Part shown: piece after piece, positions 1,442 through 46,870 of the stretch
Layout: every line of letters begins with the position of its first letter
Numbering within the stretch: position 1 is the stretch's first letter
Source of the DNA: Escherichia phage vB_Eco_ZCEC08
Sequence record: PP213477.1
Strand: one strand, 5' to 3'
Length of the DNA stretch: 47,926 nt
The notes under the pieces: generated by a model
Database searches by the model: none
Seen by the model: only the letters and a program-made list of their open reading frames with translations
Told to the model about the DNA's origin: nothing
Program-made: the position numbers and the translations under genes

Positions 1442-1470
1442 TTGACCAATCTACACCGAGCGCATAGTAT
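1442..1470 (+). promoter_or_regulatory. sigma70-like promoter (TTGACC - 17 nt - TAGTAT) followed by ATCTACATCA motif
   Basis: hexamers read directly; lies 30 nt upstream of the ATG at 1502. Confidence 0.4.
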
Positions 1471-1501
1471 AATCTACATCAGGATTATCGGAGATATCAC
1501 T

Positions 1502-1708
1502 ATGCGCAGCTATGCAGGATTTACACAGGAGGAAAAAGAACAGGTTTACTCACTGGCGCGGGCTGGTGTGCCAGATGAGGTGATATGCCGTCGGTATGAT
1601 ATTGACGAGGATTTCCTGCTGCGCGTCATTGATGATGTTTTCGTTAACCTGCAGGAGAAGCGCGGGTACAAGGGTATCTGTTGCAAGAATGATTTTTTGA
1701 GAGGGTGA
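1502..1708 (+). CDS. hypothetical protein (68 aa)
   Basis: internal ATG (residue 21 of ORF 1442..1708) preceded by GGAGA; first gene after terL. Confidence 0.45.
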   Translation: MRSYAGFTQEEKEQVYSLARAGVPDEVICRRYDIDEDFLLRVIDDVFVNLQEKRGYKGICCKNDFLRG

Positions 1709-1709
1709 T

Positions 1710-2117
1710 GTGGTTAATAATAAATTAAAGAAAATAATCCGCGATGCTGCGGATAAGAAATACACCAAAAAGATTGATATATCATTCATTGATGGTGCTG
1801 GCCTGTACAATCACGCCTGTCATCTGAATGCAGTAAACAAGGCTCGCGATGGGAGTTCGTGTGCAGTGGTTGAAGTTGTGGTGATTGATGATAAGTCAGT
1901 GATTGCACATTACATCAATATGCAGTCAGATGGCTCTTATGTTGATTACACGCTTGGCTGGCACTGGTCTGGTGCTGATTACAGGTTTGTTCGGTTCGTC
2001 CCGTTTGCCGAGTGGTCGGATATTACAGGTTCGTTAAGCAGACTAAAGGCTGAGCTGTGCAAACCAGTGGCTAAATGGCAGAAGTTGTTAATGATAACTG
2101 ATGGTGAACTTTGTTGA
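1710..2117 (+). CDS. hypothetical protein (135 aa, GTG start)
   Basis: ORF track; GAGGGTGA ribosome-binding site just upstream; stop/start coupled to neighbours. Confidence 0.5.
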   Translation: MVNNKLKKIIRDAADKKYTKKIDISFIDGAGLYNHACHLNAVNKARDGSSCAVVEVVVIDDKSVIAHYINMQSDGSYVDYTLGWHWSGADYRFVRFVPFAEWSDITGSLSRLKAELCKPVAKWQKLLMITDGELC

Positions 2118-2122
2118 GGTGA

Positions 2123-2314
2123 GTGATGATTATTGATGAAACGAAAAATTGTTATGAACTGCAAGTTAGTCATAGCTTTGGTGATTACCCTATCATGATG
2201 CTTACTTCATTCCGTGAAGGTGATGATGTTAACTCTATCGGTATTGACAAACACCAAGCCATGCAACTAATCGAAGCCATGAAACGCTGGGTTAATGGTG
2301 AGGAGATTGAGTGA
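2123..2314 (+). CDS. hypothetical protein (63 aa)
   Basis: ORF track; junction GAGGTGAGTGATG couples it to the upstream gene. Confidence 0.45.
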   Translation: MMIIDETKNCYELQVSHSFGDYPIMMLTSFREGDDVNSIGIDKHQAMQLIEAMKRWVNGEEIE

Positions 2315-2499
2315 TGAGCGTTTATTTTATTCATGCTGAAGTTATGTGGGGTGGTGATACCATCAAGAAGATTTCATGTATGGCCTCTACAAGTAATGCC
2401 ATTGAGGCGTTTAACTCATTCATGAGTTGTAGTGAGGTTAATGAGTTTAAACTTGGTGGGTATGATGTTGTCATTGATAAACTGGAAAAGGTGGAGTGA
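2311..2499 (+). CDS. hypothetical protein (62 aa)
   Basis: ORF track; start overlaps upstream stop. Confidence 0.45.
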   Translation: MMSVYFIHAEVMWGGDTIKKISCMASTSNAIEAFNSFMSCSEVNEFKLGGYDVVIDKLEKVE

Positions 2500-2660
2500 T
2501 GGCGCTATTCTGGTCGTTCTGGATTCCACTTAATTTTATGTTCTGGTGGTTTATAGCAGCCGGAGTGCAAGAGCCAAGCAAGATACATTTCATGATTAGT
2601 TCATTTTTCGCTGTGATGACTGGTGTTGTGCCATGCTTGTTGTATCAATATTTCAAATAG
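2499..2660 (+). CDS. small hydrophobic protein (53 aa)
   Basis: hand-translated MALFWSFWIPLNFMFWWFIAAG...; ATG overlaps upstream TGA (GTGATGG); below the ORF-track cutoff. Confidence 0.35.
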   Translation: MALFWSFWIPLNFMFWWFIAAGVQEPSKIHFMISSFFAVMTGVVPCLLYQYFK

Positions 2661-2670
2661 AGGTGGAGTG

Positions 2671-2868
2671 ATGCATTTCAAATCACTAAATACCATAAGG
2701 AACGAGATGGTTGGTGGCAAATATAAAAACCACAGAGACGAAGTAGTAACCGTTGTTAATGTTGTTGGCGCTGGCGGTGGTTATCAGGTCCATTTTAATT
2801 ACGGCATGCCATACAATGTGGTTTGCGGACTTGGCAAGTTCAGGCAGCGATACCCGCATAAGGTTTAG
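2671..2868 (+). CDS. hypothetical protein (65 aa)
   Basis: internal ATG (residue 17 of ORF 2623..2868) preceded by AGGTGGAGTG. Confidence 0.45.
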   Translation: MHFKSLNTIRNEMVGGKYKNHRDEVVTVVNVVGAGGGYQVHFNYGMPYNVVCGLGKFRQRYPHKV

Positions 2869-2889
2869 CCATATACCATCCATGCTATA

Positions 2890-2917
2890 ATCCCATCCAA
2901 CGTGATGGGATTTTTTA
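2890..2917 (+). terminator. rho-independent terminator candidate (CCCATC..GATGGG + T-run)
   Basis: hairpin followed by TTTTTTATT between the early small genes and portal. Confidence 0.5.
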
Positions 2918-2927
2918 TTGGTGACAT

Positions 2928-4340
2928 ATGTCAAAAATTGATGCACTAAACGCTTATATACGCGACCGCGTAGCGAACAATAACCGGGCGATCCAGCAGC
3001 AACGGCTTTGCGCTGGCGGGAAGAATCTGGACCAGAAGCGAGAGTTCATGTGGAAGGAACTTGGCTACCCGCAGGAAATCACCGCCGAGATGTTCCGCTA
3101 TGCCTATGAGCGACACCCAGCCGCCGCCGCTGGAATTAACCGCATTATTAATAAATGTTGGCAGAAATACCCTGAAGTTATCGAAGATGGCGAGGATGAC
3201 AAGAACTCAACGACATGGGAGCTGTCCATCAACGACATGATGAAGCGCGCCTACCCGTTCATCAAGGAGGCTGATAAGCGCAACGCCATCAACCGCTATT
3301 CCGCTGTTATCCTGCAAATCCGTGACGGCAAACAGTGGAGTGAGCCTGTAGACATTACAAAAACCCGCCGCATTAAAGATAAATCCATCGCTCGCTTTAT
3401 TCCGGTATGGGAAGAGCAGCTACGCGTTAGCGCATGGAATAACGACGAAACCAGCGAAGACTACGGGATGCCTGAGATGTACGAATATCAGGAAAGCGCC
3501 GTGGAGGACTTCGATAGCGATGGCAAGCCTGAGCGTTCCGTGCAGATTCACCCTGACCGCATCATCATTCTGGCTGAGGGTAGTTTTGACGGCAGTATGT
3601 TCAGTGGCATCCCGATGTTGCGTGCTGGCTACAATAGCCTTATCGACATGGCTAAGGTTTCAGGTAGTTCAGCAGAAGGATTCCTGAAGAATGCCAGCCG
3701 TCAACTGGCTGTTAACTACACGAAGGACAACGTAACGCCAGCAAGCCTTGCGCAGTCTATGGGTGTCGATATTGAAGAACTCACTGACATCATGAATGAG
3801 AACATCGAAGCGCTAAACTCAGGCATCGACGCAGCTATGTTCACAATGGGGGCGGATGCAAAGGTGCTTGCCGTAACGCCAGCCGACCCGAAACCAACAT
3901 GGGAAGTGGCTGCCAACCAGTTCGCTGCATCAATGGCGCTTCCGTTCACCGTCATTTTTGGTCAGCAAACCGGACGCCTTGCGAGTGATGAGGACAAGAT
4001 GCAGGAGGCGATGACAGCCAAGCAGCGCCGCGAAACGTGGGTTGATTATGTCATCTCAATGTTCGTTGAGCGCATGATTCAGTTCGGCATTGTCGATAAA
4101 GCACCGGCAAATGGCTACAAGGTTAAGTGGGATGATCTGCTTGCCCCATCAGAGCTGGATAAAGCTGAATTGCTGTCCAAGCTCGCCACTGCGAACAAGT
4201 CCTTCTTTGATGCTGGTCAATCTGCACTGCTGACCGTCGATGAAGCTCGCGGCATGGTTGGCATGGAGCCGATTGAGCTTGATGAAAGCTACCGCGAAGA
4301 CACACCACCGGAAGACGAAAATGAAGATACTCCGGTTTAA
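2928..4340 (+). CDS. portal protein
   Basis: 470 aa; position directly after terminase region and before head morphogenesis gene; acidic C-terminus. Confidence 0.7.
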
Positions 4341-5271
4341 CGCAAGACTTCCACAGCCGCGCATATCGCAGAGTCTTACCGACCCATTAGGCGCTGCGGC
4401 TCGCCTGCCGAAGATGGACAAGGTGATAACGCGAAAATACAAACAACTCATGGCTCGTGCGCTCGAGTTGTTTCGCACTATTCCGAGCAGTCAGGCTAAC
4501 GCAGAGTCAAGTGGCCTGTATTTCTACGATTTCAGTAGTGCGCGGGCCGCCACTTTTATGGATGAGTTGCAGGCGCTGATTGACGAGATTCTGCTGGAAG
4601 GTGATGATTTCGGTCACGGCAGGATGTGGGCCAATGTGTTCATCGGTGATGCATATCAGGCGGGAACGCAGAAGGCAAACTCAGAGCTATCAAGTCTTTC
4701 TCCGGTTTATGCTGAACAGCGACCGATTGCTGCGATACTCTACAGTGAGCCTTACCTGAACAGGCTGCAACTGGCGTACACATCCGGATATTCAGACTGG
4801 CGCGGACTGAGTGATTACTCCCGTCAGCAACTGGCATCCGTCATCATGGAAGGTATTGCCCGTGGTGCTAATCCTCGCGATGTTGAAGCTGATATTGTTA
4901 AGCGTGTGGATGTGTCTCATAGCTACGCGAAACAGTTGGCGCAGACTGAAATAACCGGAACGCTGCGACAGGCAAACAGGCGGGAGGTCATTGAGGCACG
5001 CGAAGAGCTAGGCATTGAGACGGTGATGCTGTGGCAGTCGGCATTGATGCGCACAACCCGCCAGACGCACGCGGCGAGACACGGCCGGTTTTACACGCCA
5101 GAAGAGATTGACACGTTTTATAGTGAGAATGGCAATAGATATAATTGCCACTGCGCACAGACTCCGGCTTTGTTAATGGGTGGTAAGCCGGTCATTCTTG
5201 AATCGTCGCAGGGAAGGCTTGATAAGCAGCGAGAAGCATGGCAATCAGCCAACAAAAAGCCCTCCAAGTGA
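4321..5271 (+). CDS. head morphogenesis protein (Mu F / SPP1 gp7-like)
   Basis: start moved to ATG overlapping portal stop; [16 protein letters not shown] resembles the F-family motif. Confidence 0.6.
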
Positions 5272-5290
5272 GGGCTTGGTTTTATTTCGA
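5256..5290. terminator. bidirectional rho-independent terminator
   Basis: AGCCCTC-CAAGT-GAGGGCT then TGGTTTTATTT; stop codon of the upstream gene lies in the hairpin; convergent genes on both sides. Confidence 0.55.
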
Positions 5291-5360
5291 TGGCTTATCG
5301 CATTTACTGCACCAACTATTAAGGCACATGCGCCCGCAATGCTTGCATATAGGCCACATA

Positions 5361-6011: not shown

Positions 6012-6012
6012 T

Positions 6013-6264
6013 TCATTCTCCTAGCGCTTTGTTGATTGCACCCTGTGCTGATTTAATCACTTCTGGGTATGCGTCATTCCAGTTTTGCTTATACGCTTTA
6101 CTGAGCATTTTCTGCAAAGCCTCCAGAAGCTCAGGTGCTGCAGCGATGACGTTGGCATCATCCTTATTGGTAACATCGCACACGAATTGGTCGCCATTAC
6201 TATAGACCCCACCAAGTTCATCATCGTAATGCCACGACCCAGGGATTCCTTTAAATTCTTCCAT
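6013..6264 (-). CDS. Ead/Ea22-like family protein
   Basis: motif IAAAPELLEAL...INKALGE shared with ORF 37490..37771; ATG at residue 5 of the track ORF. Confidence 0.5.
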   Translation of the reverse strand: MEEFKGIPGSWHYDDELGGVYSNGDQFVCDVTNKDDANVIAAAPELLEALQKMLSKAYKQNWNDAYPEVIKSAQGAINKALGE

Positions 6265-6272
6265 CACCAACC

Positions 6273-6416: not shown

Positions 6417-6440
6417 GATTTCTCCCTCACTCATCATTTA

Positions 6441-6477
6441 ATGTAGATACTATGCACCACCACTCAATCTACGTCAA
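6441..6477 (-). promoter_or_regulatory. candidate minus-strand promoter (TTGACG ... TAGTAT) with inverted ATCTAC motifs
   Basis: reverse complement reads TTGACGTAGATTGAGTGGTGGTGCATAGTATCTACAT. Confidence 0.35.
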
Positions 6478-6521
6478 TAGTCATTGTGATAGAATTAATC
6501 ATTATTTGAACTGGAGGCAGA

Positions 6522-8790: not shown

Positions 8791-9092
8791 TATTTAATCT
8801 CTCCGTTCAGTTCATTAACAATTAACGTTGCATAGCCAGCAATATCTTTCCAGCTGTCATCATAAGTCGGGTCGCCATTCAGAATGCGCCCAATCTTGTG
8901 CTGAATCATGTCGAGCGCCTCGCGTTGACTTGGTGTGAGATTGCGCCAGCCATCTACCTCGCGCATCACATCTTTCAACTCCTGCATAATTTCAGCGCCG
9001 TCTTTGAATTTACCGTATCGACTACCGCGTTCGGTGATGAGTCGCTCTGTTGCGTCAGTATGGCGCTTATCGCCCGTGATTTGTGAACTCAT
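8790..9092 (-). CDS. hypothetical protein (100 aa)
   Basis: ORF track. Confidence 0.5.
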   Translation of the reverse strand: MSSQITGDKRHTDATERLITERGSRYGKFKDGAEIMQELKDVMREVDGWRNLTPSQREALDMIQHKIGRILNGDPTYDDSWKDIAGYATLIVNELNGEIK

Positions 9093-9579
9093 TGTGATGC
9101 ATTCTCCTGAATTCTTTTATTTTTGCTTCTGCTTCTCTTATGTCGGAAAAGTAACCAACTGTGAATCTTTTGCCATTTACTCCAACTCTTGCATGCCACT
9201 TGTTGTGCGATGAACTCCAGTTAACCCCCTTGATACCGCTAGTGTTGTTTTTGTTCATTGCTTTGTTGTGGCTATTCTCAAATTTGCTGGCCTCCCTTAA
9301 ATTGCACGCCCTGTTGTCATTGCGAATGCCATTAATGTGGTCAATCATTTCACTTGCTGGCGCGCCATGAATGCATATCCATGCCAATCTGTGAGCAAGA
9401 AAAGCCCTACCGCAAAGAATTATTTGCACATATCCATCTGGCTTTAAGTAGCCAGCCACACTCCCTTTTTCTGCAATCCTATTCCTTGTCTTTAGCCATT
9501 TAAATTCCCCAGTTAGTGGATTGTAGTAAAGGTAACTCAATATAAACTCCCTACTCGGCTCATCTCTCCTATGCCTCAT
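9067..9579 (-). CDS. HNH homing endonuclease (AP2-domain type), paralogue 1
   Basis: HRLAW..., IDHINGIRNDNRACNLREAS, GVNWSSSHNKWHARV; paralogous to 10322..10861 and 47414..47926. Confidence 0.7.
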   Translation of the reverse strand: MRHRRDEPSREFILSYLYYNPLTGEFKWLKTRNRIAEKGSVAGYLKPDGYVQIILCGRAFLAHRLAWICIHGAPASEMIDHINGIRNDNRACNLREASKFENSHNKAMNKNNTSGIKGVNWSSSHNKWHARVGVNGKRFTVGYFSDIREAEAKIKEFRRMHHNEFTNHGR

Positions 9580-9808: not shown

Positions 9809-9853
9809 CTTGACGTTTCTACATCATTTAGTCAATACTTGTTGACGTAGATT
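9809..9853. promoter_or_regulatory. divergent regulatory region with inverted TCTACATCA / TGACGTAGA motifs
   Basis: CTTGACGTTTCTACATCATTTAGTCAATACTTGTTGACGTAGATTG between divergent genes. Confidence 0.3.
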
Positions 9854-10139: not shown

Positions 10140-10334
10140 ATGGCGCATGACGAACTGTACGAAGAATCGTTAATCCAGAGGTTGAATGAAGTTGAGCGCA
10201 CTCGCGAATGGCTGGAGTGCGAGTTACGAGAAGTGCGCAACCGCCTGCAACGCAAGCGCAGTCAGCAAAGAGATGTCATCGACTGGTCTGGGGGTACACC
10301 TAAATTTAACAATCTGGGAGAATGGTTGAAATGA
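10140..10334 (+). CDS. hypothetical protein (64 aa)
   Basis: ORF track. Confidence 0.4.
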   Translation: MAHDELYEESLIQRLNEVERTREWLECELREVRNRLQRKRSQQRDVIDWSGGTPKFNNLGEWLK

Positions 10335-10861
10335 GCAACATTAGTCAGGAAAGCATTTTAAAGTTCCTCCAGTATGATGAAAATACAGGAAACTTTCTAT
10401 GGATTGATAATTTCTCAAGAAAATCAAAGAAAGGGAAGGTGGCTGGAGGTATTACATCGCATGGGTATTGGAGAATTCAACTCCCCATCGGGAGGTTTTA
10501 CGCACACAGAATGGCGTGGATTGTTTGCAATGGAGATATACCAAACGGATATGAGATTGATCACATAAATGGGAACAAGAAAGATAATCGCATCAGCAAC
10601 CTAAGATTGGTCACAAGAGGTCAAAATGTTATGAATGTAGGCGTGAAAAACAATAATACAAGCGGAGTTAAGGATGTTGTTTGGGACTCTTCGCGAGAAA
10701 GGTGGGGGGTTCAAATTACAGCCAATGGCAAGCATTATTATGGAGGTAGATTCTCGTCAATAACACAAGCAAAAGAGGAGAGGAACAGGCTCATAAAGAT
10801 GGTTCACGGGAAATTTTTGAATACAAAAGGTGAGCAATATGACACTACTAATGAACGATGA
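10322..10861 (+). CDS. HNH homing endonuclease (AP2-domain type), paralogue 2
   Basis: HRMAW..., IDHINGNKKDNRISNLRLVT, GVKDVVWDSSRERWGVQI. Confidence 0.7.
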   Translation: MVEMSNISQESILKFLQYDENTGNFLWIDNFSRKSKKGKVAGGITSHGYWRIQLPIGRFYAHRMAWIVCNGDIPNGYEIDHINGNKKDNRISNLRLVTRGQNVMNVGVKNNNTSGVKDVVWDSSRERWGVQITANGKHYYGGRFSSITQAKEERNRLIKMVHGKFLNTKGEQYDTTNER

Positions 10862-11075
10862 GAAATTACTTGAATGCCCGTTTTGTGGTTGTGATGACGT
10901 AAGTGTTATTGATGACGGCGAATGGTTGCACGTTGAGTGCGGAGATTGTTTTTGCCGCACTGACTCGTATTGCTGCGCATCCACGGCAATGAAGAAATGG
11001 AACACAAGAGGTGGACACCTCTACACTTCCGACGACTTCAATCAGGCAGCAGAGGAGCGCGATTATGGATTATAA
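10830..11075 (+). CDS. Lar-like restriction alleviation protein (zinc ribbon)
   Basis: N-terminal LLECPFCGCDD...C..C pattern typical of the Lar family; exact start uncertain. Confidence 0.45.
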   Translation: MSNMTLLMNDEKLLECPFCGCDDVSVIDDGEWLHVECGDCFCRTDSYCCASTAMKKWNTRGGHLYTSDDFNQAAEERDYGL

Positions 11076-11553
11076 ATCACAAATCATGCGCGTGATTGTC
11101 AATCATCCAGGGGCAACGCGTGCATATATTGAAAAGCATTGCGGAGGTAAGCATTCAAGCACCACAACGCACCGTTTACATGAGATGCTTGCGCTTGGAT
11201 TCATTCGTCGAGAGAAGTCCGTGATTCGTGGTGGTAAGTGGCAGTATAAGTATTTCATCTCTGAGGATGCAGCAGGTATTGATGATGCGATTAAGTGCCA
11301 TTTGCTTGATAACGCTGGCGCAGAGGTGAAAGAAATCAGTGCAGCCACTGACCTTGATTACCGAATTGTAAAAAGCCGCATCCGCATTATGTTTCATAAC
11401 GGTGATGTGACGCGAAGCTATGACCACCACAAGAAGCTGTGGCGTTACTCATGGAAGGAGCAGGAAGTAAATATGAGCAATCTGTTTAATTCACTTCTTC
11501 GCAGCGCAAGAGGTCATTATGGGAAAAGCGAAACGCAAGAAGCAGGAGTATGA
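11065..11553 (+). CDS. hypothetical protein
   Basis: internal ATG (residue 19 of ORF 11011..11553) overlapping upstream stop. Confidence 0.5.
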   Translation: MDYKSQIMRVIVNHPGATRAYIEKHCGGKHSSTTTHRLHEMLALGFIRREKSVIRGGKWQYKYFISEDAAGIDDAIKCHLLDNAGAEVKEISAATDLDYRIVKSRIRIMFHNGDVTRSYDHHKKLWRYSWKEQEVNMSNLFNSLLRSARGHYGKSETQEAGV

Positions 11554-12852: not shown

Positions 12853-14606
<1,754 letters not shown>

Positions 14607-17687: not shown

Positions 17688-18487
17688 TAAACGGACCTCA
17701 TGAATGCTTTAATGAATTCTGCTGCGACTTGTGGAACTATGGCATTACCATAACCGCGCAATCGTCCCACTCTTGCGGATACCCCATGAGTTGCCTCGCA
17801 AAATCCGCCTGGTATGACTCTAGTTTCCTTATCTGCTCCATGGTTGGGTTTCCATGAATCCCATAAACATGAAGCCACATCTGGCGATAAAGAGTATCGT
17901 TCCTGAATTTCCCGTCCTTTCTGTAAAATGACTTGCTGAGATTCCCGTAATCCTTCCATCCTCGCGCCGTTGGTGTCGCCCATCCTCGCGCCAAAGATGA
18001 TTCTTTTCCTTTCCTGTGGAGAGCCGACGCTGCAAGCTGGCAATACTGACGCCCCGCAGGCGTAGCCTTTGTCTTCCAGGTTAAGGAATACAAAATCGAG
18101 CCAGTGCTTCCCAATTGCTGCTGCAACCTGCTCTCCAAACAGCAATTCAGGCTTGCACTCTCTGATGAGCCTGAGAAATGCTGGGGCAAGGTGTCGATCG
18201 TCGTCAAATCCGAGAGACTTACCGGCAACGCTAAACGGCTGGCAAGGTGGTGATCCTGTCCAGAGTCGAGTGCTTTCTGGTATTCCTGCCAGCTGGAGTG
18301 CAAGGGGCCACCCTCCGATTCCGGCAAAGAAGTGACACTGTGTAAATCCTTCCAGGTCTGAAGGGGTGACTTCGGTGATTGATCGTTCATCGACATATCC
18401 GTAAGGAATTAGTTTATTGTTAATTAATTCACGCAGCCATGCCGCTGCGCCCTTGTCCCACTCATTGTAATAGTGGACCATCATCAC
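17687..18487 (-). CDS. DNA (cytosine-5) methyltransferase
   Basis: motif I FFAGIGG, motif IV PPCQPFSVAGK, GEQV (ENV-like) motif. Confidence 0.8.
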   Translation of the reverse strand: MMMVHYYNEWDKGAAAWLRELINNKLIPYGYVDERSITEVTPSDLEGFTQCHFFAGIGGWPLALQLAGIPESTRLWTGSPPCQPFSVAGKSLGFDDDRHLAPAFLRLIRECKPELLFGEQVAAAIGKHWLDFVFLNLEDKGYACGASVLPACSVGSPQERKRIIFGARMGDTNGARMEGLRESQQVILQKGREIQERYSLSPDVASCLWDSWKPNHGADKETRVIPGGFCEATHGVSARVGRLRGYGNAIVPQVAAEFIKAFMRSV

Positions 18488-19293
18488 ATCTTCTCCAGAA
18501 TTGCCATCACCTCGTGAATATCAGCAACAGGAATCTTGATAAACTCCTCATTCTCTGCCACTACATGACCAGCAAGAAGAATAACGTGGTCAGCTGGCTT
18601 CAGTAACTCAATCAGTCGGTCTACTGGCTTAATCTTTTTCGACTTAAGCACCTTCGCCGTTACCTTATCCTTGCCTTGCGCCTTCGCTTCTTCGACTGCC
18701 TCGTCGATAACTTTAACCGCATCATCGCCATGTTCGCGAGTTACTGCTACGGCATTTGCATAGCTGATTTGCCCTGCACTGATTCGCGCTTTTACTTCGG
18801 CTGGCACATCACCCAGTGACAGGTGCATCTGCACGTCAGAAACTGAGCGCCCTACCTTCTTGGCGATTTCCTCGTTGGTCCAGCCAAAACCCTTCAGTCG
18901 CGTGTAAGCCTTTGCGCGTTCAAACGGGTCAAGCTGCTTACCCTGACTGGACGACACCATGAAGGCGATTTTATCTGCTTCGCCTCCTGTGAAATCCTTG
19001 CACTCAATACGAACAATTGGTGCGCCACGCTCAATGGCACGCAATGCGCCTAGATAGCGATGCTGACCATCAAGAATGCGGATTCCCTTCTCATCAGGAA
19101 TAACTGTTAATGCTGGTAATGGCTGACCTGATTCCCAGCACTGCGCGAAATACTCCACATGCTGCTCGTCTGCTTCGCGGATGTTGTATCCCGGCTCCAG
19201 ATAGATTTGCTCCACTGGCACGAGATAGGTTTTGTTAACAGCGATTCCGTTGCGCGTTTCTTTGTCTGAATAGATTTTGCTAAGTGTTTTCAT
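18484..19293 (-). CDS. ParB-like nuclease domain protein
   Basis: ILDGQHRY (ParB/Srx DGxHR motif) plus helix-turn-helix-like TNEEIAKKVGRSVSDV; start moved to residue 32 (MKTLSK). Confidence 0.65.
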   Translation of the reverse strand: MKTLSKIYSDKETRNGIAVNKTYLVPVEQIYLEPGYNIREADEQHVEYFAQCWESGQPLPALTVIPDEKGIRILDGQHRYLGALRAIERGAPIVRIECKDFTGGEADKIAFMVSSSQGKQLDPFERAKAYTRLKGFGWTNEEIAKKVGRSVSDVQMHLSLGDVPAEVKARISAGQISYANAVAVTREHGDDAVKVIDEAVEEAKAQGKDKVTAKVLKSKKIKPVDRLIELLKPADHVILLAGHVVAENEEFIKIPVADIHEVMAILEKM

Positions 19294-19488: not shown

Positions 19489-20130
19489 TTAATCCTCATC
19501 ACCAGAATTAGCAATATCGTAAAACTGACCGTAGGTTATCTGCTTAAAGTTATCAGGTATCGTTACCTGTCCGTGACCTTCATCTTTTGTATTTGGCACA
19601 GCAAAAATCAAACAATCATCCTTTTTCGGGTGTTTGCCTCCATAAGTAGAAAGCATTGCAAAACCAAATCCGCGACCAGATTTCTCACCAATGCCGGTAC
19701 GTGCGATGCCATAATGGTTAACAATGTAGTCCTTCCATTCTGGCAATAACTTTAATTTCTCGTTTGCCTCGCGCATCACTGCGTCCAGCTTTTTGTTGTA
19801 TTCACGACCATCCTTTGTGTTTCCTTTCCCACGAACAATAACCACGCGCTGACCTTCCCAAAAATCTTCACGTTTTATTGTTACAGGGCATGGAAATTCA
19901 AATTTATTGCTCCACGCAAAACTCTCAAGCAGGCCACCGCCAACAGCGCCCCAACTGCGCGTTGTGGTAAATGCGACAGCTCCAACCTTTTTCATTGCGT
20001 CACCGAGAATTTCATTGCGGCGATTCTTGATGTCATCGTATGCGTCGATTAGTTTCTTAACATCATCACCTTCAACCATGTAATAATCATAATGTTTTGC
20101 GTTACTACTCATCTTCATCACCTCTAACAT
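19489..20130 (-). CDS. hypothetical protein (213 aa); start may be 18 nt downstream
   Basis: ORF track; GAGGTG precedes the third in-frame ATG; no motif recognised. Confidence 0.5.
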   Translation of the reverse strand: MLEVMKMSSNAKHYDYYMVEGDDVKKLIDAYDDIKNRRNEILGDAMKKVGAVAFTTTRSWGAVGGGLLESFAWSNKFEFPCPVTIKREDFWEGQRVVIVRGKGNTKDGREYNKKLDAVMREANEKLKLLPEWKDYIVNHYGIARTGIGEKSGRGFGFAMLSTYGGKHPKKDDCLIFAVPNTKDEGHGQVTIPDNFKQITYGQFYDIANSGDED

Positions 20131-20139
20131 TTATTGTTG

Positions 20140-20200
20140 TTTCTACGTCACTAACTATAAACGCCACATCAATCTACGTCAACAGGAATATGCTAAAATC
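20140..20200. promoter_or_regulatory. divergent promoter region with two direct TCTACGTCA motifs and an extended -10 (TGCTAAAAT)
   Basis: GTTTCTACGTCA and TCAATCTACGTCAA about 32 bp apart; TGnTAAAAT upstream of the plus-strand genes. Confidence 0.35.
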
Positions 20201-22617: not shown

Positions 22618-22694
22618 TGGTGGACACGGACGGATTTGAACCTTCAATCAGCCGATTATTAGTCGGTTGCTTTAACCAATTAAGCTACGCGTCC
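22618..22694 (-). tRNA. tRNA-like gene, isotype undetermined (hand fold gives anticodon AAU)
   Basis: minus strand reads GGACGCG-TA-GCTT-AATTGGTTA-AAGC-A-ACCGA-CTAATAA-TCGGC-TGATT-GAAGG-TTCAAAT-CCGTC-CGTGTCC-ACCA: 7-bp acceptor stem (one G.U), 4-bp D stem, T-loop TTCAAAT, encoded CCA; one mismatch each in anticodon and T stems. Confidence 0.5.
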
Positions 22695-23192
22695 ATAAGT
22701 GCTGGTTTAAGCATTGCCAGCGTGCTTTCTTAACATCCAGCCCCGTAACCCATACATACCCCTACATATGATTGCGATAATGCTGGATATTAAGTGTTGT
22801 GGTGGCCGGTGCTGATCTCCGGCATAAGGCGCTTATTCGGCGGCGTCGAGCTTGCTTATTCGCTTGAGCCATCCTCGTGAGTCAGCCACGTCCCACTGCG
22901 CATCAGCCTGCGCATTCACCACAACGGAAAGAGCACTGATGCGCTCACTTGGGACTCCTTAGCCATAACCCACGGGCTTCTGGTACACCAATGCTCTTAC
23001 CTGTTGTGTTCCCTGACTTATTAATCACACCTCAGGGACGCAGTGCGCCGAATTTGTTTACAAGGAATCGGAAGACCTTGCTGACTTACAGGCTATTACG
23101 CCGCCATCAGAACAACATCATCGTTTGCATTTATCTTTGTGGTCAGTTTCTAAAAAGTCCGCAAAGTCGCTCACGAAAACTATCTGAAATAC

Positions 23193-23236
23193 AATCTACA
23201 CCACAAAATAATCGCTGTCAACACCTGTGATATAAT
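23193..23236. promoter_or_regulatory. back-to-back promoters: minus TTGACA-17-TAGATT and plus extended -10 TGATATAAT
   Basis: hexamers read directly; plus promoter precedes the major tail gene; minus promoter points into the non-coding region and tRNA. Confidence 0.45.
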
Positions 23237-24585: not shown

Positions 24586-24633
24586 AATCTACATCACCAC
24601 CCCGCAGGTGTCAACACCACTGAGATGATATAA
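24586..24633. promoter_or_regulatory. back-to-back promoters: minus TTGACA-17-TAGATT and plus extended -10 TGATATAAT
   Basis: same architecture as 23193..23236; drives the minus moron operon and the plus tail chaperone gene. Confidence 0.5.
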
Positions 24634-35428: not shown

Positions 35429-35490
35429 TATAGTAATTTACAACCATTAAGTCAACTTTTAATTACTTTATTTACGCCGCGTGCCATTTA

Positions 35491-37489: not shown

Positions 37490-37771
37490 TTATTTGCCTA
37501 ACGCTTTGTTGATTGCTGTAATCGCTTGATTATGTGCGTCACGAGAAATACCATTATTTACCCATCCTAGACATGCTTGCAAAGCACTCAAGAGTTCTGG
37601 GGCGGCGGCTATGAGGTATGCATTGTGCCACTGCTCATCTTTATCCCCGTTATATGTTGGCGTGCTGGCAATATCAACTCCACCATCAGCTACAATATCA
37701 GGCGAATTGTCATCACCAACCACTACTCTCCACGCACCTTTAGTACCTTTGAATTCGTTACTCATCTTCAT
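37490..37771 (-). CDS. Ead/Ea22-like family protein
   Basis: IAAAPELLSALQ...INKALGK shared with 6013..6264. Confidence 0.5.
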   Translation of the reverse strand: MKMSNEFKGTKGAWRVVVGDDNSPDIVADGGVDIASTPTYNGDKDEQWHNAYLIAAAPELLSALQACLGWVNNGISRDAHNQAITAINKALGK

Positions 37772-37803
37772 TACCTCACTTGTTATTGTCAGTTGAATCT
37801 ACA

Positions 37804-38229
37804 TCAATCTACATCGAAAGGCAAGCCAAAATAGAAAAGCGTGGCTTTTTTTAGTTCATCAAGACCATAAGCGATGGCAGCATAATGACCAAGCCTGCAC
37901 ATCTCTGTTAGCACTGCTGATTGATCCTTGCTCACCCTGCTTTTGCTTTTATCGCGGCGCTTTGCTTCAATCATCCCACAACTGTGATTTACCCCCGGAG
38001 TCATTATCACATTGTCGCCTATACCAGCCTTAACCCCCATCTTCTGGCGCTTCAATACAAACTGGACGCGGCTGGATGTTCCTGTTTCATTCGGGACGTG
38101 AAACCAGAGCACATCAGGGAAACGGTGTTGCATCCATGTTCCATAACCCATCTGGTCAGTCTCCTCTTTTGGGCATTCTCCTCGATAACCGCTATCAAAT
38201 ACCCATATACCGCTATCAAGCTGCTTCAC
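37804..38229 (-). CDS. VRR-NUC domain nuclease
   Basis: FHVPNETG...MGVKAGIGDNVIM...IEAKRRD...SKDQ pattern. Confidence 0.6.
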   Translation of the reverse strand: MKQLDSGIWVFDSGYRGECPKEETDQMGYGTWMQHRFPDVLWFHVPNETGTSSRVQFVLKRQKMGVKAGIGDNVIMTPGVNHSCGMIEAKRRDKSKSRVSKDQSAVLTEMCRLGHYAAIAYGLDELKKATLFYFGLPFDVD

Positions 38230-40416: not shown

Positions 40417-40446
40417 TTGATGTTTCTACGTCAGTTAGCTTATACT
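40417..40446 (+). promoter_or_regulatory. sigma70-like promoter (TTGATG - 18 nt - TATACT) with TCTAC motifs
   Basis: hexamers read directly; about 30 nt upstream of primase ATG. Confidence 0.4.
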
Positions 40447-40476
40447 CAATCTACACCAACAATCAAGGGTCAATTT

Positions 40477-41875: not shown

Positions 41876-43467
41876 TTCAAACCCCTCATAAATCTCATGC
41901 GCTTAACAGCAGCAGAAAGATAATTTCTAACCGTTGAGTTCATTCGCAGACCATCCCATGAGCCATCACCGCACATCTTTATAGCTCTTGGGTTATCCCT
42001 GTCCAGCATTAGTGGTGAATGCTTATTTTCCTCAATAGCAAGAAGAACCTCATAAACAAACTTATCAGGTGTTAGTGTGATGTTATTAGAGTCAGCAGAA
42101 TTGATTATCTTTTTAATTCTATCACGACACAGCTTGTTCTTTATAACAGACAAGTAAGGCGTTTTAATGAATGCCTGTGATTCACAAATTCGCTTAATTT
42201 TTTCTACAATGTTCTCCCATTCAGTATTTTCAAGTCCATCAAACTCCTGTTCGCCCTCAAGGAATCTTTGCAGACCAGCGAGATGCTCAAGAACTACGAT
42301 ATATCCCCATTCGACATGCTCCATCGTAACTGCTGGCGTCATTCCACGGCGACTTGACAGATCTGCGTAAGCCGCAAGCGTTGCAAGGTCTACAATCATT
42401 AGCCCCATGCGCGGGATAACGTCACCAACAACACCATCGCGATCACCAAGCTCACTTTCCAGTTTCATAGACAGAGATCTGTGCAGTTTTTTCACATCAT
42501 CATCAGCCCATACAGCGTTAGTTTTCGCGGTAAGAATCCTACCCTTCCACTCATTGATTATTTTTCTTGAAAGTGTGCCGCTAGCTTCCACATCCTTCAT
42601 CGCTGGCATTTCCTCACCAGCAAGATGTCCAAGCTGAAACAGCACTCGCCCCATGCCGCCATCTTTCTGCCATGAACGCGCAGCATCTATTCCCTGCTCT
42701 GGAGTGACAGTAATCAGCGGAACAAATTTTGCGTTTTCAATTCCACCGTCTTTTGTTGCAAGTTCGTACTCATTCATTGCCGACTTGAGCGCGCGCCCAA
42801 CGCTGTGGTCCATCATCGCAAGGCGCTTATAATCTATGACGCCTTTCCCATCATCACCACCAGTAAGTGGCACTATCCATCCCTCAGCACTTGCTGCCGC
42901 CATGATGCGTTTTGGGTTTTGTTCCCAAGTAAGGTTTTCAAGCAGCTCCTTGATTATTGGTCTGTTAGGCACCCACACGCCGCCATCAGTGAGGCCTCTA
43001 TACCACGCCATAGTACCGCCAAGATATGCATTGCGCGGGTTGTTCCAGTCTTCAAGATGTTGTTTGTCATCGTTCACAACGTAGAGCAAAGAACCACCTC
43101 CAGCAATCAGGTCTAACTGCATCTGTTTCGTCGAGGTTGATTTAGATGCGCAAACTCTGGAGCCAATTCCCAGTGCATTGGAATATGCCCTAACGAAACT
43201 CACAGGGGCACCCTTACCTGCACCAGAGCGAGCCACCAGAAATATACCAGTATTGCAGATACTACCTGTTGGACCAATCAAATATCGTCCAGCCATCGCC
43301 TGAGTAAGACCCAAGGCACCAGTTAAGCGATATCTCTCCCCATCATTACGGCGCTCAAAGTTTTTCGCAATCTCATCCATAAACTCACCAAGTGCACCAG
43401 GAGCCTTCCTGTTTATACCCATAGCCATAGAATCAAAATCAATAGCGCCCATCAATATACTCTCCAT
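41872..43467 (-). CDS. hypothetical replication-module protein (531 aa)
   Basis: ORF track; degenerate P-loop-like LVARSGAGKGA; function not recognised. Confidence 0.5.
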   Translation of the reverse strand: MESILMGAIDFDSMAMGINRKAPGALGEFMDEIAKNFERRNDGERYRLTGALGLTQAMAGRYLIGPTGSICNTGIFLVARSGAGKGAPVSFVRAYSNALGIGSRVCASKSTSTKQMQLDLIAGGGSLLYVVNDDKQHLEDWNNPRNAYLGGTMAWYRGLTDGGVWVPNRPIIKELLENLTWEQNPKRIMAAASAEGWIVPLTGGDDGKGVIDYKRLAMMDHSVGRALKSAMNEYELATKDGGIENAKFVPLITVTPEQGIDAARSWQKDGGMGRVLFQLGHLAGEEMPAMKDVEASGTLSRKIINEWKGRILTAKTNAVWADDDVKKLHRSLSMKLESELGDRDGVVGDVIPRMGLMIVDLATLAAYADLSSRRGMTPAVTMEHVEWGYIVVLEHLAGLQRFLEGEQEFDGLENTEWENIVEKIKRICESQAFIKTPYLSVIKNKLCRDRIKKIINSADSNNITLTPDKFVYEVLLAIEENKHSPLMLDRDNPRAIKMCGDGSWDGLRMNSTVRNYLSAAVKRMRFMRGLK

Positions 43468-43781
43468 ACTCGCAAGAATTTGCCAGGGATAATACCTTGT
43501 TTCACCGTTAACACAGCGCCAACCCTGTCCGCCTCAATTTTTAGCGCCTTCTGAAGTGACGTCATTGTCATCTGAAAACCTCGCTCTATATCGTATGCGT
43601 AGCACCCATCTCTTCTACCAATCAAAATTGAAGTTGAATACCCGTTCTCAAAGTAAAACTGACACCCATCAGGAGCGGTAAGATTATTTATCACGTCGTG
43701 AGCAAGCGATGTCGTTACAGGGAATATAGGCGCGCAACTCATACCTACCTCACTCAACTCGCTTAATGTGCAAAACTTCAT
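43452..43781 (-). CDS. hypothetical protein
   Basis: ORF track. Confidence 0.4.
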   Translation of the reverse strand: MKFCTLSELSEVGMSCAPIFPVTTSLAHDVINNLTAPDGCQFYFENGYSTSILIGRRDGCYAYDIERGFQMTMTSLQKALKIEADRVGAVLTVKQGIIPGKFLRVWRVY

Positions 43782-43980
43782 CGAAATATGAGCACGTTCT
43801 GAATTTCATCCCAAAATCCTCACCAACCCTTCCGAGACACGCGCGAAATCTTTCAACAGACAGACCTTTATATGCAATGTCCTCATAAGCAATCGAATTA
43901 ACCTGACCAACATCCATATGTTTTGCAACGCGATACACAAACTCCATCTTTGAACCATCACGATACATTTTGTTTCTCAT
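43750..43980 (-). CDS. hypothetical protein (first gene of the replication operon)
   Basis: ORF track 43750..44013; start moved to the ATG that follows GGAGGT. Confidence 0.4.
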   Translation of the reverse strand: MRNKMYRDGSKMEFVYRVAKHMDVGQVNSIAYEDIAYKGLSVERFRACLGRVGEDFGMKFRTCSYFDEVLHIKRVE

Positions 43981-44013
43981 AGTAACCTCCATCTGAATTC
44001 CAGCAGTAACCAT

Positions 44014-44635
44014 AGATAAAAAATAAAATTAACGCAACACAAAACAGGTCTAACCAGCAACAATAGCTACCACACTTAATAACTGGTCAGACCACCATCC
44101 CGTATCTGATATATGTGGATGGCGCCTGTCGTTCAATTTGAACTCGATTTTTACCTAATTTACCGTATATTTATCGGTCGGTTTTTTGCATAAATAATTG
44201 ATTTATAGTATTTTACCTGTTTTACCGTAACTCTAAGGAGTATTTTCATCATTAAGAGTGGTAGTATATTAATTGGTCTAATTTTAAAGAAATCTAATAA
44301 AATCAATATATTAATATAAAAGAATAGCTTACTTACTTCTATAGTATTTACCTGGTAAAACCGGTAACTCCTCCGAAGGCCGCGTCATTACTGGATTCAT
44401 TTTTACCGCCTGTAGGTAAATACAGTAGTTTTCAATCCGTTATTGCTCTTCTAAGCTGTTGATTACCGGTACTTTATTTGGGAAACCGGCATTTACCGGT
44501 TTTTGTGGTGTGATTAATAATCGAGCAACTGGTCCTGTTTCACCAGAACCAACTAATGCGACGCCTGAAAATCATGTTGACGTAGAATCATCATTGATGT
44601 AGATTGAACTAATCGAAACAAACGAGGGTGAAGAG
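44014..44635. repeat. AT-rich non-coding region with iteron-like TTTACC(G) repeats and ACCGGT palindromes; candidate origin
   Basis: direct TTTACC copies near 44148, 44159, 44211, 44221, 44347, 44401; inverted copy near 44415; ACCGGT near 44360, 44465, 44495; no ORF of 60 aa or more. Confidence 0.35.
44577..44605 (+). promoter_or_regulatory. sigma70-like promoter TTGACG-17-TAGATT
   Basis: hexamers read directly; about 30 nt upstream of the ATG at 44636. Confidence 0.45.
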
Positions 44636-44782
44636 ATGAAAATCAAAGACCGAGAAGAATTTGAAGATGCTCAGGCTATGGCGCGCATTGCAGTTGAGCG
44701 CACAAATAACAGTATACCTGCCGACGCATTCTGGAACGCAGCAATGCAGGCGTTAATCTCAGCATATGGCTTAAGCAAATGA
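44636..44782 (+). CDS. small hypothetical protein (48 aa)
   Basis: hand-translated MKIKDREEFEDAQAMARIAVERTNNSIPADAFW...; GAGGGTGAAGAG upstream. Confidence 0.4.
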   Translation: MKIKDREEFEDAQAMARIAVERTNNSIPADAFWNAAMQALISAYGLSK

Positions 44783-44874
44783 CAGGCGCATCATTCGAAC
44801 TTATCGCCAGTCTGGTTATCGTGGCATTCGTCATTATCGCAGTGGCAGTTTCAAAATCAGGGTATAAGGAGTAG
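44779..44874 (+). CDS. small hydrophobic peptide (31 aa)
   Basis: hand-translated MTGASFELIASLVIVAFVIIAVAVSKSGYKE; ATGA overlap. Confidence 0.3.
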   Translation: MTGASFELIASLVIVAFVIIAVAVSKSGYKE

Positions 44875-44962
44875 AAAAATGAGCAACTGGCATAACGAAC
44901 ACATCATGCAGTGGTTTCGCCGTCGCATTAAGTCAATTACTAACTCTTATGAGGTTTAACAA

Positions 44963-45145
44963 ATGGCAAAGACTATATATCGTCGCGAGAAGCTGGAACC
45001 TGAACTCGGTCACGTTGGCGCGCAGAACTTTATGAGCAAGCAGGCACGCAATGCAATGGAATCTATCCGAGTGAATCGCGTTGTGCGCGTGTTTAATGGT
45101 GAAGGCAAGCGAAGAGTAATGGATGAGCTGATTATCGTGTTCTGA
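44963..45145 (+). CDS. hypothetical protein (60 aa)
   Basis: ORF track. Confidence 0.4.
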   Translation: MAKTIYRREKLEPELGHVGAQNFMSKQARNAMESIRVNRVVRVFNGEGKRRVMDELIIVF

Positions 45146-45181
45146 CCTCGATTCAGGTGACTTATTTTTAATGGTGATGAT

Positions 45182-45409
45182 ATGGCAAAAGTGAAAACAT
45201 ACGAGTTCTGGCTTGCACAGAACAAAATGTATGCAAGCAAGGAAATCAAGAGAGCACGCTGGTGGAATAAATTGTTAATCCTGTCCGGCTGCATAGTGCT
45301 GGCAAAGTGCAAATTCAAAGCGATTGACATCACCGATGAGGATGCGCTCACAATCGCAAAGATTGAGTTTGAAGAAGATGGATATCACGAAGAAATTATT
45401 GGGGGTTAG
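45182..45409 (+). CDS. hypothetical protein (75 aa)
   Basis: ORF track. Confidence 0.45.
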   Translation: MAKVKTYEFWLAQNKMYASKEIKRARWWNKLLILSGCIVLAKCKFKAIDITDEDALTIAKIEFEEDGYHEEIIGG

Positions 45410-45412
45410 GGT

Positions 45413-45766
45413 ATGAGTGAAGTTAATTACCAGGCACTGCGTGGGATAGCAAAACAAGCAACACAAGGCGAATGGGTCGCATTTATTTCGCAGGGTACTG
45501 GTACGTATGCGGTGCATACGCCAGGTGATAAACGATGTGAAGACATTATCAAATGGACCGGCTTTGATGGACAGAAAAACGCAAAGAACAACGCTCGTTA
45601 TATCGCAGCTTTAAACCCAGCAGTGGTTCAGGCACTACTGGATGAACTGGAAGCTCAAAGTAAACGCATTGCAGAACTGGAGTCTGCATTAAATCGCCAT
45701 TATGAGATCCCTGACGTTTATGATATGGCGATAAAGCAATTCGAAAGCCTGGCTAAAAGTGAATAG
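45413..45766 (+). CDS. Ead/Ea22-like family protein (third paralogue)
   Basis: ARYIAALNPAVVQALLDELEAQSKRIAELE matches the Ea22-type IAA..P..V.ALLD.LEA motif. Confidence 0.5.
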   Translation: MSEVNYQALRGIAKQATQGEWVAFISQGTGTYAVHTPGDKRCEDIIKWTGFDGQKNAKNNARYIAALNPAVVQALLDELEAQSKRIAELESALNRHYEIPDVYDMAIKQFESLAKSE

Positions 45767-45829
45767 CTACCCGTTCATATTAATTATCAGTGCGCTCTAT
45801 GTGGCGCACGCTTTAGTGGAGGCATACTC

Positions 45830-45937
45830 ATGAACAACCACAAACGACGCCGATACACCACTGGCGCTAAAATCTTCCTTGCTGTTTATGTGCTGGCCCT
45901 GGTGGCAGCCATTGCAGGAGTTGTGCATTATGTTTAA
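45830..45937 (+). CDS. small hydrophobic peptide (35 aa)
   Basis: hand-translated MNNHKRRRYTTGAKIFLAVYVLALVAAIAGVVHYV; GGAGG upstream. Confidence 0.3.
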   Translation: MNNHKRRRYTTGAKIFLAVYVLALVAAIAGVVHYV

Positions 45938-46109
45938 CGATATCAGCGACGCAATGCAGAACATGTGGGAACGCTACTGGAACAGCATGAAGACATGTCA
46001 CTACATGATGGTACAGATAGGTAGTTACATTGAGGTTGTTCCTGACAATGGTGTGCACGACATTAAGTACATGTGCTCAACGAGGGATTATGCTAATGCA
46101 AACCACTAA
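45930..46109 (+). CDS. hypothetical protein
   Basis: internal ATG (residue 18 of ORF 45879..46109) overlapping upstream stop. Confidence 0.35.
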   Translation: MFNDISDAMQNMWERYWNSMKTCHYMMVQIGSYIEVVPDNGVHDIKYMCSTRDYANANH

Positions 46110-46263
46110 ACAGAAAGTCTGGCAACTCGCAAAGCAGCACGAATTAGACGATTTCATCGAGAAGGTTGCAAAGACATTCCCTGACGCGCTTGAAGTCGTT
46201 CATGTGCAGACGCGAAATGAAAATGCATGGTGCTACACAAAAAATCATACAAATGGTAGATGA
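46096..46263 (+). CDS. hypothetical protein
   Basis: internal ATG (residue 23 of ORF 46030..46263). Confidence 0.35.
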   Translation: MQTTKQKVWQLAKQHELDDFIEKVAKTFPDALEVVHVQTRNENAWCYTKNHTNGR

Positions 46264-46264
46264 A

Positions 46265-46690
46265 ATGAAGCTAACAAAAAAACAACGCGAAGAGCTACGC
46301 ATGAAGTTCGGTGGTCGCTGTGCTTATTGTGGGTGTGAGCTACCCGAGAAAGGTTGGCATGCAGACCATGTTGAACCAGTGCTACGTAAATCTGAGCAGT
46401 GCATGAAGGCAGCGGCGAAAGGGATTTTCAAGCTGAAGGCAACCGGTGAGCTATATCGACCAGAAGCCGAGCGACTGGAAAACCTTTACCCTGCGTGCGC
46501 CCCCTGCAATCTGATGAAAACTTCCTATTCCCTGGAAATGTTCAGGAAGCAGGTATCTCTTCAGGTTGCTCGTGGGCGCAAAAGCAGCATGAATTTCCGC
46601 ACTGCAGAGCGTTTCGGTCTTATCGCCGTGGTGGAGAGACCAGTTGTTTTCTGGTTTGAGAAATACCAGGAAGAGAACGAAAAAAAATAA
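46265..46690 (+). CDS. HNH endonuclease (start uncertain, ORF track 46166..46690)
   Basis: CAYCGCEL...WHADHVEPV...NLYPACAPCNLMK. Confidence 0.6.
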   Translation: MKLTKKQREELRMKFGGRCAYCGCELPEKGWHADHVEPVLRKSEQCMKAAAKGIFKLKATGELYRPEAERLENLYPACAPCNLMKTSYSLEMFRKQVSLQVARGRKSSMNFRTAERFGLIAVVERPVVFWFEKYQEENEKK

Positions 46691-46777
46691 ATGTGTTTAT
46701 GATGCTCTGTTGGCAAGCGCGATAATGATGGTGTACAATAAACGCATAACCACCATTGCTTTCACTTATATCATCAC

Positions 46778-46810
46778 CCAACCTTTAACCCGCCTTGTGC
46801 GGGTTCTTTT
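46778..46810 (+). terminator. rho-independent terminator
   Basis: CCCGC-CTTGT-GCGGG followed by TTCTTTTTT. Confidence 0.5.
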
Positions 46811-46870
46811 TTATCTACGTCTATGTGTTAAAATTAGCGTATGTGAGTTACTTAAAGAACACAAAAAGAC

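Follow-up and report, generated by a model that had tools for sequence, protein, structure and literature searches.

Motif M, an intergenic repeat in the 47,926-nucleotide (nt) DNA of Escherichia phage vB_Eco_ZCEC08 (PP213477.1; the whole of this DNA is called the window below), has its closest published analogue in a repeat of phages TLS and T1. In TLS, aaATAGCACnnnTTGnTAAAA recurs as a 21-nt intergenic direct repeat, the function of which is listed by its authors as an open question (PMC11447400). We counted 23 matches to the TLS-type repeat ATAGCAC-N3-TTGyTAAAA in T1, against 4.9 expected, at about 20 sites (for example 1450, 2269, 4344, 4864, 6531, 36444 and 38953), which confirms an 'unpublished observation' of the TLS paper (PMC11447400). 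The TLS/T1 repeat is lineage-specific, has about 20 intergenic copies, occurs in small virulent enterobacterial siphoviruses and is joined to −10-like elements. We presume that it fits the MarA/SoxS/Rob marbox, AYnGCACnnWnnRYYAAAY, which could mean activation by a host or phage protein of the AraC type. The two elements differ in sequence, and the TLS/T1 repeat is rigid, with a box and TTGyTAAAA at fixed spacing and always co-directional, whereas M varies in register and orientation. Because of this rigidity and co-directionality, we regard M as a different element outside that family; membership was also rejected by count, the window having 5 loose matches to the TLS/T1-type repeat against 5.2 expected. 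Our preferred reading, which we hold to be moderately probable from the sequence evidence, is that M is the operator of a sequence-specific regulator, probably phage-encoded, laid over early sigma70-type promoters that it would shut off.

Several regulatory systems share features with M. The gp71 stoperators of mycobacteriophage L5 are asymmetric 13-bp sites; a genome has about 30 of them, in short stretches of intergenic DNA, and M resembles them in asymmetry and repetition. TGTCAA, the complement of TTGACA, is present in the L5 site, and one class of sites overlaps a −35 element, as M does; both suggest a monomer-type binder and global transcriptional control. However, L5 sites keep a single orientation and serve temperate immunity, whereas M occurs in both orientations within one promoter (for example, 9816 on the plus strand and 9853 on the minus strand), and M sits within core promoters whereas stoperators lie inside transcription units. 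Protein p4 of phi29 occupies the −35 region of the early promoters A2b and A2c, just upstream of the divergent late promoter A3, so that it represses the former and favours the latter, and the same geometry is found here at four loci. Unlike M, the p4 sites are inverted repeats to which dimers bind along with p6. We identified no p4 homologue in the window, and the switch is a presumed one. KorB of plasmid RK2, a ParB-family global repressor, has 12 OB operators over promoter regions, and the window also encodes a protein with ParB/KorB-type helix-turn-helix (HTH) domains. OB, however, is a 13-bp palindrome beside or far from promoters, whereas M is asymmetric and lies within the hexamers, and KorB is a cytidine triphosphate (CTP)-dependent clamp with a GERR motif, whereas the protein in the window has DGQHR. 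More loosely than p4, lambda Cro resembles the model proposed for M, as an autoregulated early regulator that damps early promoters through operators overlapping their hexamers, although the lambda OR and OL operators are 17-bp pseudo-palindromes at two loci and M is asymmetric and dispersed over ten. T4 MotA boxes lie 11–13 nt from the −10 element in place of a −35, a spacing that M shares at two copies only.

M is 12–14 bp long (TCAATCTACRTCAA) and is present in about 17–20 copies. Its core consensus is (T)CAATCTACRTCAA(C) and its extended consensus is (T)(C/G)AATCTAC(A/G)(T/C)CAA(C/T)A, an asymmetric, non-palindromic sequence that holds a direct repeat, TCAA-N6-TCAA, spaced by one helical turn. 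A preliminary description, made from the sequence alone, had placed the motif in at least ten intergenic regions and divided it into two subtypes. The copies do occupy ten such regions, all of its copy coordinates hold to within 1–3 nt, and both subtypes exist, GTTTCTACRTCA at 9815, 20139 and 40422 and CAATCTACRYCA at the remaining sites; the overlap it reported with −35-like and −10-like hexamers 17 nt apart proved correct in our promoter scans. Enrichment over shuffled controls and in intergenic over coding DNA, the checks it had suggested, were both found. ATCTACRTCA occurs 7 times against 0.16 expected, a count reached by 0 of 100 shuffles, and TCTACRYCA occurs 14 times against 1.13 expected, again with no shuffle reaching the count. 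With up to 2 mismatches, AATCTACRTCA matches 51 sites (24.7 expected). An unbiased k-mer scan with third-order Markov expectation put TCTACGTCA and its extensions at the top for each k from 8 to 10; exact copies of the TCTACGTCA type number six in that scan, every one intergenic. For the TCTACRYC core, 15 of 18 occurrences are intergenic (binomial p=2.8e-12), given that intergenic DNA makes up 11.1% of the window in a gene map obtained by projecting the annotation of Salmonella phage vB_SenS_ST1UNAM onto it and filling the gaps with open reading frames. We used strict copies alone; iterating a position weight matrix (PWM) with a loose threshold led into coding noise, with 60 hits versus 21 in shuffles. 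Among the literature matches listed for the motif strings, there were only unrelated primer hits. M is a real, previously undescribed and not exotic regulatory element.

The copies are given here with the predicted promoters around them; promoter calls are consensus matches, from −35/spacer/−10 combinations scored by PWM on both strands.

1448..1458, plus strand: M copy AATCTACACCG, beginning right after the −35 TTGACC (1442–1447) of a rightward promoter, TTGACC-17-TAGTAT, score 12.3
1471..1481, plus strand: M copy AATCTACATCA, right after the −10 TAGTAT (1465–1470), over the expected start; kept in Klebsiella phage DP01 and Aeromonas phage pIS4-A
6439..6449, minus strand: degenerate copy TATCTACATTA, which overlaps both the −10 (TAGTAT/CATAGT) of a leftward promoter and its start site
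6466..6477, plus strand: copy AATCTACGTCAA, reverse complement TTGACG forming the −35 of that leftward promoter; the −10 hexamer TAGAAT in the rightward lysis-gene extended −10 TGATAGAAT (6487–6495) follows 13 nt downstream; a 16-nt block here is invariant in DP01 and pIS4-A
9816..9826, plus strand: copy TTTCTACATCA, right after the −35 TTGACG (9810–9815) of a rightward early promoter, the operon of which encodes a tandem winged-helix protein
9842..9853, minus strand: inverted copy, reading TTGACGTAGATT on the plus strand, 3 nt past the −10 AATACT (9834–9839), over the expected start
20140..20150, plus strand: copy TTTCTACGTCA, on the minus strand 3 nt past the −10 TATAGT of a leftward promoter, over its start site
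20171..20182, plus strand: copy AATCTACGTCAA, reverse complement TTGACG forming the −35 of the leftward TTGACG-17-TATAGT (ParB operon), score 14.2, 10/12 match; 12 nt upstream of the −10 hexamer TAAAAT in the rightward TGCTAAAAT (20191–20199)
23193..23203, plus strand: copy AATCTACACCA, reverse complement TAGATT forming the −10 of the leftward TTGACA-17-TAGATT (23221 to 23193), score 14.2, predicted to drive a leader and tRNA-Ile
24586..24596, plus strand: copy AATCTACATCA, reverse complement TAGATT forming the −10 of the leftward TTGACA-17-TAGATT (24614 to 24586), score 14.2, facing a superinfection-immunity gene cluster
37796..37816, plus strand: a tandem pair spaced by 10 bp; the first copy, as its reverse complement, forms the −10 of the leftward TTGCCT-17-TAGATT, score 10.4, facing recombination genes, and the second, at 37806, fills the spacer; DP01 has TTGATG-17-TAGATT at the matching site
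40423..40433, plus strand: copy TTTCTACGTCA, right after the −35 TTGATG (40417–40422) of the rightward primase promoter, score 11.4
40448..40458, plus strand: copy AATCTACACCA, 1 nt past the −10 TATACT (40441–40446), over the start site
44577..44588, minus strand: inverted copy, reading TTGACGTAGAAT on the plus strand, supplying the −35 of a rightward early promoter, score 12.9
44594..44605, minus strand: inverted copy, reading TGATGTAGATT on the plus strand, supplying the −10 TAGATT of that same promoter
46812..46822, plus strand: copy TATCTACGTCT, right after a terminator hairpin and ahead of a putative small terminase gene; 3 nt upstream of the extended −10 TGTTAAAAT (46826–46834) and 6 nt from its −10 hexamer

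The relation of M to the promoter hexamers is close and varied. Its reverse complement consists of a −35-like hexamer, TTGAYG, fused to a −10-like hexamer, TAGATT, so that a copy can itself act as −35 or −10. Eight promoters reach a score of 12 or higher, seven of them intergenic, and among those seven, five use or abut M, as do four weaker promoters; the nine M-associated promoters score 9.6–14.2. An independent scanner ranked three leftward M-type promoters of the 19.9–24.8 kb region first, each with 10/12 matches. M forms the −35 element at 20182 (minus strand; TTGACG-17-TATAGT), 44577 (plus) and 6477 (minus), and the −10 element at 23221, 24614 and 37824 (all minus) and at 44600 (plus). 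Elsewhere a forward copy begins exactly after the −35 (1442, 9810, 40417 and 20134, together with the DP01 and pIS4-A orthologues), or a copy starts at the −10 or shortly behind it and covers the expected start (1471, 40448 and, on the minus strand, 6449; inverted at 9842 and 20150). Altogether, five registers of M relative to the hexamers can be distinguished, and copies point both ways.

Where only half of M is needed by the promoter, the other half is kept. All four TTGNNN-N16-18-TAGATT promoters in the window have TGRYG before TAGATT (chance about 0.004 per site), with the TG at −14/−13, which is not where an extended −10 has it. Behind TTGACG −35 elements comes TAGAWT (chance about 0.0006 per site). 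The two patterns are seen again in phages Bas77, IME207, DP01, pIS4-A and seszw. Each predicted M promoter faces a co-oriented gene start or tRNA 25–500 nt downstream, and the M-bearing consensus promoters all face non-structural genes, namely small host-takeover genes, Lar, ParB, methylase, RusA, recombination genes, helicase, primase and Imm. At 23193, 24586 and 37796 the promoter lies on the minus strand, opposite to the copy, a point beyond the preliminary description.

Some of these promoters are followed by features of their own. The unit downstream of the promoter at 23221 to 23193 comprises a leader of about 500 nt, a tRNA-Ile (anticodon AAT; 22618–22694, minus strand) that is not annotated in ST1UNAM, and a terminator (22612–22592). 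A block of the leader, 23120–23190, is conserved in DP01 and pIS4-A, and apart from the tRNA no Rfam family was matched. Two paralogous 5' leaders, 20101–20140 and 37754–37795 (minus strand), share CAAC(A/TG)ACAATAA...GAGGT(G/A)ATGAAGATGAGTA, and each directly follows an M copy. The first genes of the operons behind both leaders start with MKMS, so a promoter–leader module appears to have been duplicated.

Comparison with related phage genomes, which the preliminary description had recommended, showed that M is clade-wide and found at syntenic sites. The window is the complete genome of a small virulent siphovirus of Skatevirus-like type, in a clade treated as 'Skatevirus and relatives' with Roufvirus as outgroup (PMC11990801). 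Over 85% of the first 12 kb it is 96.9% identical to ST1UNAM; other near relatives are Escherichia phage HC6 (about 94%) and the BASEL phages Bas77–79 and IME207 (about 90%). No integrase or CI-like repressor was found in the relatives' annotation or in domain screens, pointing to a virulent lifestyle. The 9-mer core of M is present in 14–16 copies in ST1UNAM, HC6, Bas77 and IME207 (about 1 expected per genome) and in 12 copies each in DP01 and pIS4-A (Roufvirus; about 1 expected each), and the relatives' copies occupy the same syntenic intergenic regions as those of the window. Phage T1 has 0 copies of the core. M was found in phages of Salmonella, Escherichia, Klebsiella, Citrobacter and, reportedly, Aeromonas, and a 14-mer scan of viral contigs returned Skatevirus-like contigs and chance single matches, and no M-bearing clade clearly apart from these. 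When nine orthologous intergenic regions of the window and DP01 were aligned in pairs, M columns were 78% identical, other promoter hexamers 76% and the remaining intergenic columns 52% (M versus other intergenic columns, Fisher's test: odds ratio 3.3, p=2.7e-10). This difference between 78% and 52% identity marks the M copies as phylogenetic footprints.

A second class of predicted promoters has extended −10 elements, TGnTAnAAT, without a −35, and these precede structural, lysis and putative terS genes by 35–160 nt.

2883, 6487, 12814, 16558, 20191, 23228, 24626, 28960, 31542 and 46826, plus strand: extended −10 sites

Genome-wide enrichment of TGnTAnAAT is weak (15 versus 8.5 expected) and its placement is consistent; these elements are likely to be a late promoter family, as judged from their consensus and position. 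At four divergent loci, at 6.4, 20.1, 23.2 and 24.6 kb, the M copy of the early promoter lies about 30–50 bp upstream of an opposing late-type start, and the late-type genes concerned are lysis, head–tail or tail genes. A weak motif-like sequence, AAT(C/A)(A/T)ACATCA, follows several of the extended −10 elements (for example at 24632 and 31548). One further weak member of the M family lies inside a gene.

13707..13738, plus strand: motif-like GTTCTACATCA and TGGTAAAAT, inside the prohead protease/scaffold gene (12853–14139)

There, 15 nt separate GTTCTACATCA from the downstream −10 hexamer of TGGTAAAAT. The arrangement is conserved in seszw, and a nested scaffold product, or else the decoration and capsid genes, may be expressed from an internal promoter at this site.

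The earlier proposal had been that M is a promoter family or an operator set, or serves as the two at once. We find the last of these best supported, M being part of or beside the hexamers in five registers with its unused half conserved. An element that only contacts polymerase would keep to a single register and orientation. Five registers, both orientations and a conserved half that sigma70 does not need together suggest an operator superimposed on promoters, with a second reader of the DNA besides the polymerase. A regulator made early would bind M across the early promoters and, at any register, would exclude RNA polymerase; given such exclusion, the likely function would be shut-off or feedback control of early transcription. 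At the four divergent loci, binding could also tip the balance from early to late transcription, either passively or by activation. Operator function, promoter activity, the assignment of genes to early or late classes, protein binding and repression are all things that we infer from these patterns. We therefore class M as a probable phage operator set overlapping host-type promoters, and it would be unusual in that the operator doubles as either hexamer.

As to what binds M, two DNA-binding proteins are encoded within operons predicted to be under M control.

11065..11553, plus strand: 162-residue tandem winged-helix protein (phrog_1687, annotated 'MarR family')
18484..19293, minus strand: 269-residue ParB/KorB-HTH protein (HTH_ParB, E=2.4e-11; KorB domain, E=5.9e-6)

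In a rough split, the largest share, a little short of an even chance, goes to some other small phage protein or a host factor; the ParB/KorB-like protein is a possible but tentative choice, and the tandem winged-helix protein a doubtful one. In architecture the tandem winged-helix protein is the best-fitting candidate, since a monomer of that build matches an asymmetric site of two parts. The second recognition helix of this protein has invariant Y99, K103, R105 and R107, the protein as a whole is about 35–36% conserved, and its gene is confined to the clade. The ParB-like protein is 80% identical in pIS4-A, matches Spo0J, Noc and KorB in the PDB, and carries DGQHR in its N-terminal motif in place of the GERR CTP-binding box. 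In the outgroup phage ECOO78 a ParB homologue is 48% identical and M is absent, which is uninformative for a ParB–M link. ECOO78 has 7 copies of a palindrome, (A)ACAAT-S-ATTGT(T), against about 0.2 expected (for example at 14571, 17693, 19909 and 24243), and one lies just upstream of its ParB-like gene as a candidate parS or operator. That a ParB/KorB-family protein of a virulent siphovirus acts as a global early-to-late switch, through about 20 asymmetric operators that double as promoter hexamers, is a speculative reading of these sequences to which we give low probability. If true, a KorB-like global silencer known from plasmid maintenance would have been recruited to a lytic programme and would act on non-palindromic sites. 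Screening about 40 proteins against Pfam and PHROGs revealed no Cro-, sigma-, anti-sigma-, MotA- or AsiA-like protein; beyond the two candidates, the roughly 40 small proteins gave no DNA-binding signature, and many small ones had no assignable fold. Two paralogous small proteins (37490–37765 and 6013–6264, both minus strand; phrog_1273/PF27050) share the motif LIAAAPELLxAL...AINKALG and are encoded next to M promoters, and in seszw, DP01 and pIS4-A the gene for a homologue immediately precedes that for ParB; they were dropped as binders for want of a DNA-binding signature.

Several points weigh against an operator for a phage-encoded regulator. Strong sigma70-like promoters without M exist at 35455 (minus strand) and 46710 (plus strand). 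Since good −35-like and −10-like hexamers are contained in M, promoter function by itself accounts for part of its conservation. Proteins with a ParB-type HTH normally bind palindromes, and M is not one. In the literature on the clade we found no transcriptome, start-site, expression-timing or protein–DNA binding study. Finally, seszw_260L, a viable genome-reduced Skatevirus mutant of 37.4 kb from the CiPGr study (PMC9825161), has a clean deletion of the tandem winged-helix gene (site 1735–1775) and keeps all the M copies, about 15. The same mutant also lacks the methylase, RusA and an EaC-like gene, and its ParB is kept at 98% identity. Among Salmonella-phage records, 80 have the winged-helix gene, versus 127 with ParB and 125 with the primase locus; by these counts, the winged-helix gene would be missing from about 45 seszw mutants, and ParB would be present in every clade record. 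Dispensability is judged here from the one inspected mutant genome and the counts of deposited records. The public seszw mutant series is a ready resource for testing regulator candidates.

Other readings account for parts of these data. M could be a shared, strongly selected sigma70 core, made up of the hexamers and of flanks that adjust polymerase binding and perhaps homogenized by recombination, that needs no dedicated regulator. It does supply the −35 or −10 of the best-scoring promoters, and the paralogous leaders downstream of two copies show that promoter modules have been duplicated. However, sigma70 has no comparable preference in the spacer or at +1, which are among the five registers that M occupies in both orientations, the TG at −14/−13 is out of place for an extended −10, and the unused half has been kept across genomes that are only 52% identical in other intergenic DNA; we therefore consider a purely promoter-based origin unlikely, though far from negligible. 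We think it rather improbable that M is instead an activator or sigma-appropriation box, of the T4 MotA-box or class II kind, for middle or late promoters without a −35. At 6466 and 20171, and at their DP01 and pIS4-A orthologues, M ends 11–13 nt upstream of an extended −10, as MotA boxes do, and the structural genes do use predicted promoters without a −35. Yet this spacing is found at 2 of about 17 copies, the others lying 3–7, 15, 27 or 32 nt away or on the opposite strand; the late-type extended −10 elements at 2883, 12814, 16558, 28960 and 31542 have no upstream M; and the protein screen gave no MotA-, AsiA- or sigma-like candidate.

A conserved host protein, exploited to time or boost phage promoters, would explain how M stays invariant across hosts while the tandem winged-helix protein has diverged to about 35% identity. 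T1, however, which shares hosts, has no M, and M is not known to fit the E. coli consensus sites for DnaA, IHF, CRP, Fis, MetJ, NarL, the marbox regulators or alternative sigma factors; a host binder of this kind seems to us quite improbable. Hardly credible is a non-transcriptional role for M as a parS-like loading site at which ParB serves genome organization, replication or packaging. ParB is core to the clade, 80% conserved and retained in the seszw mutants as in all other Salmonella-phage clade records, but at ten loci the position of the copies with respect to the hexamers is exact to the base pair, M lacks the symmetry of parS, and the ParB N terminus has DGQHR and not GERR. A function at the RNA level was rejected because several copies are the −10 itself, which is untranscribed, and because orientation to transcription varies.

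Elsewhere in the window, at least four genes encode HNH homing endonucleases (9067–9579, minus strand; 10322–10861, 46202–46690 and 47414–47926, plus strand). The gene at 10322–10861 is missing from the nearest relative, ST1UNAM, which fits mobile insertions making up much of the 15% of non-aligned sequence.

Phages of the Skatevirus and Roufvirus type are common on Salmonella, E. coli and Klebsiella, are used in biocontrol, are candidates for therapy and are part of the BASEL collection, and nothing was known before of how they control transcription. The search for the regulator is now narrowed to a few proteins, and for phage engineering the M copies are both sequences not to be disturbed and compact regulated promoters. 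For the genome as a whole, M gives a testable promoter and operator map, with about ten predicted early transcription units, an extended −10 class of probable late promoters and four candidate switch points between them.

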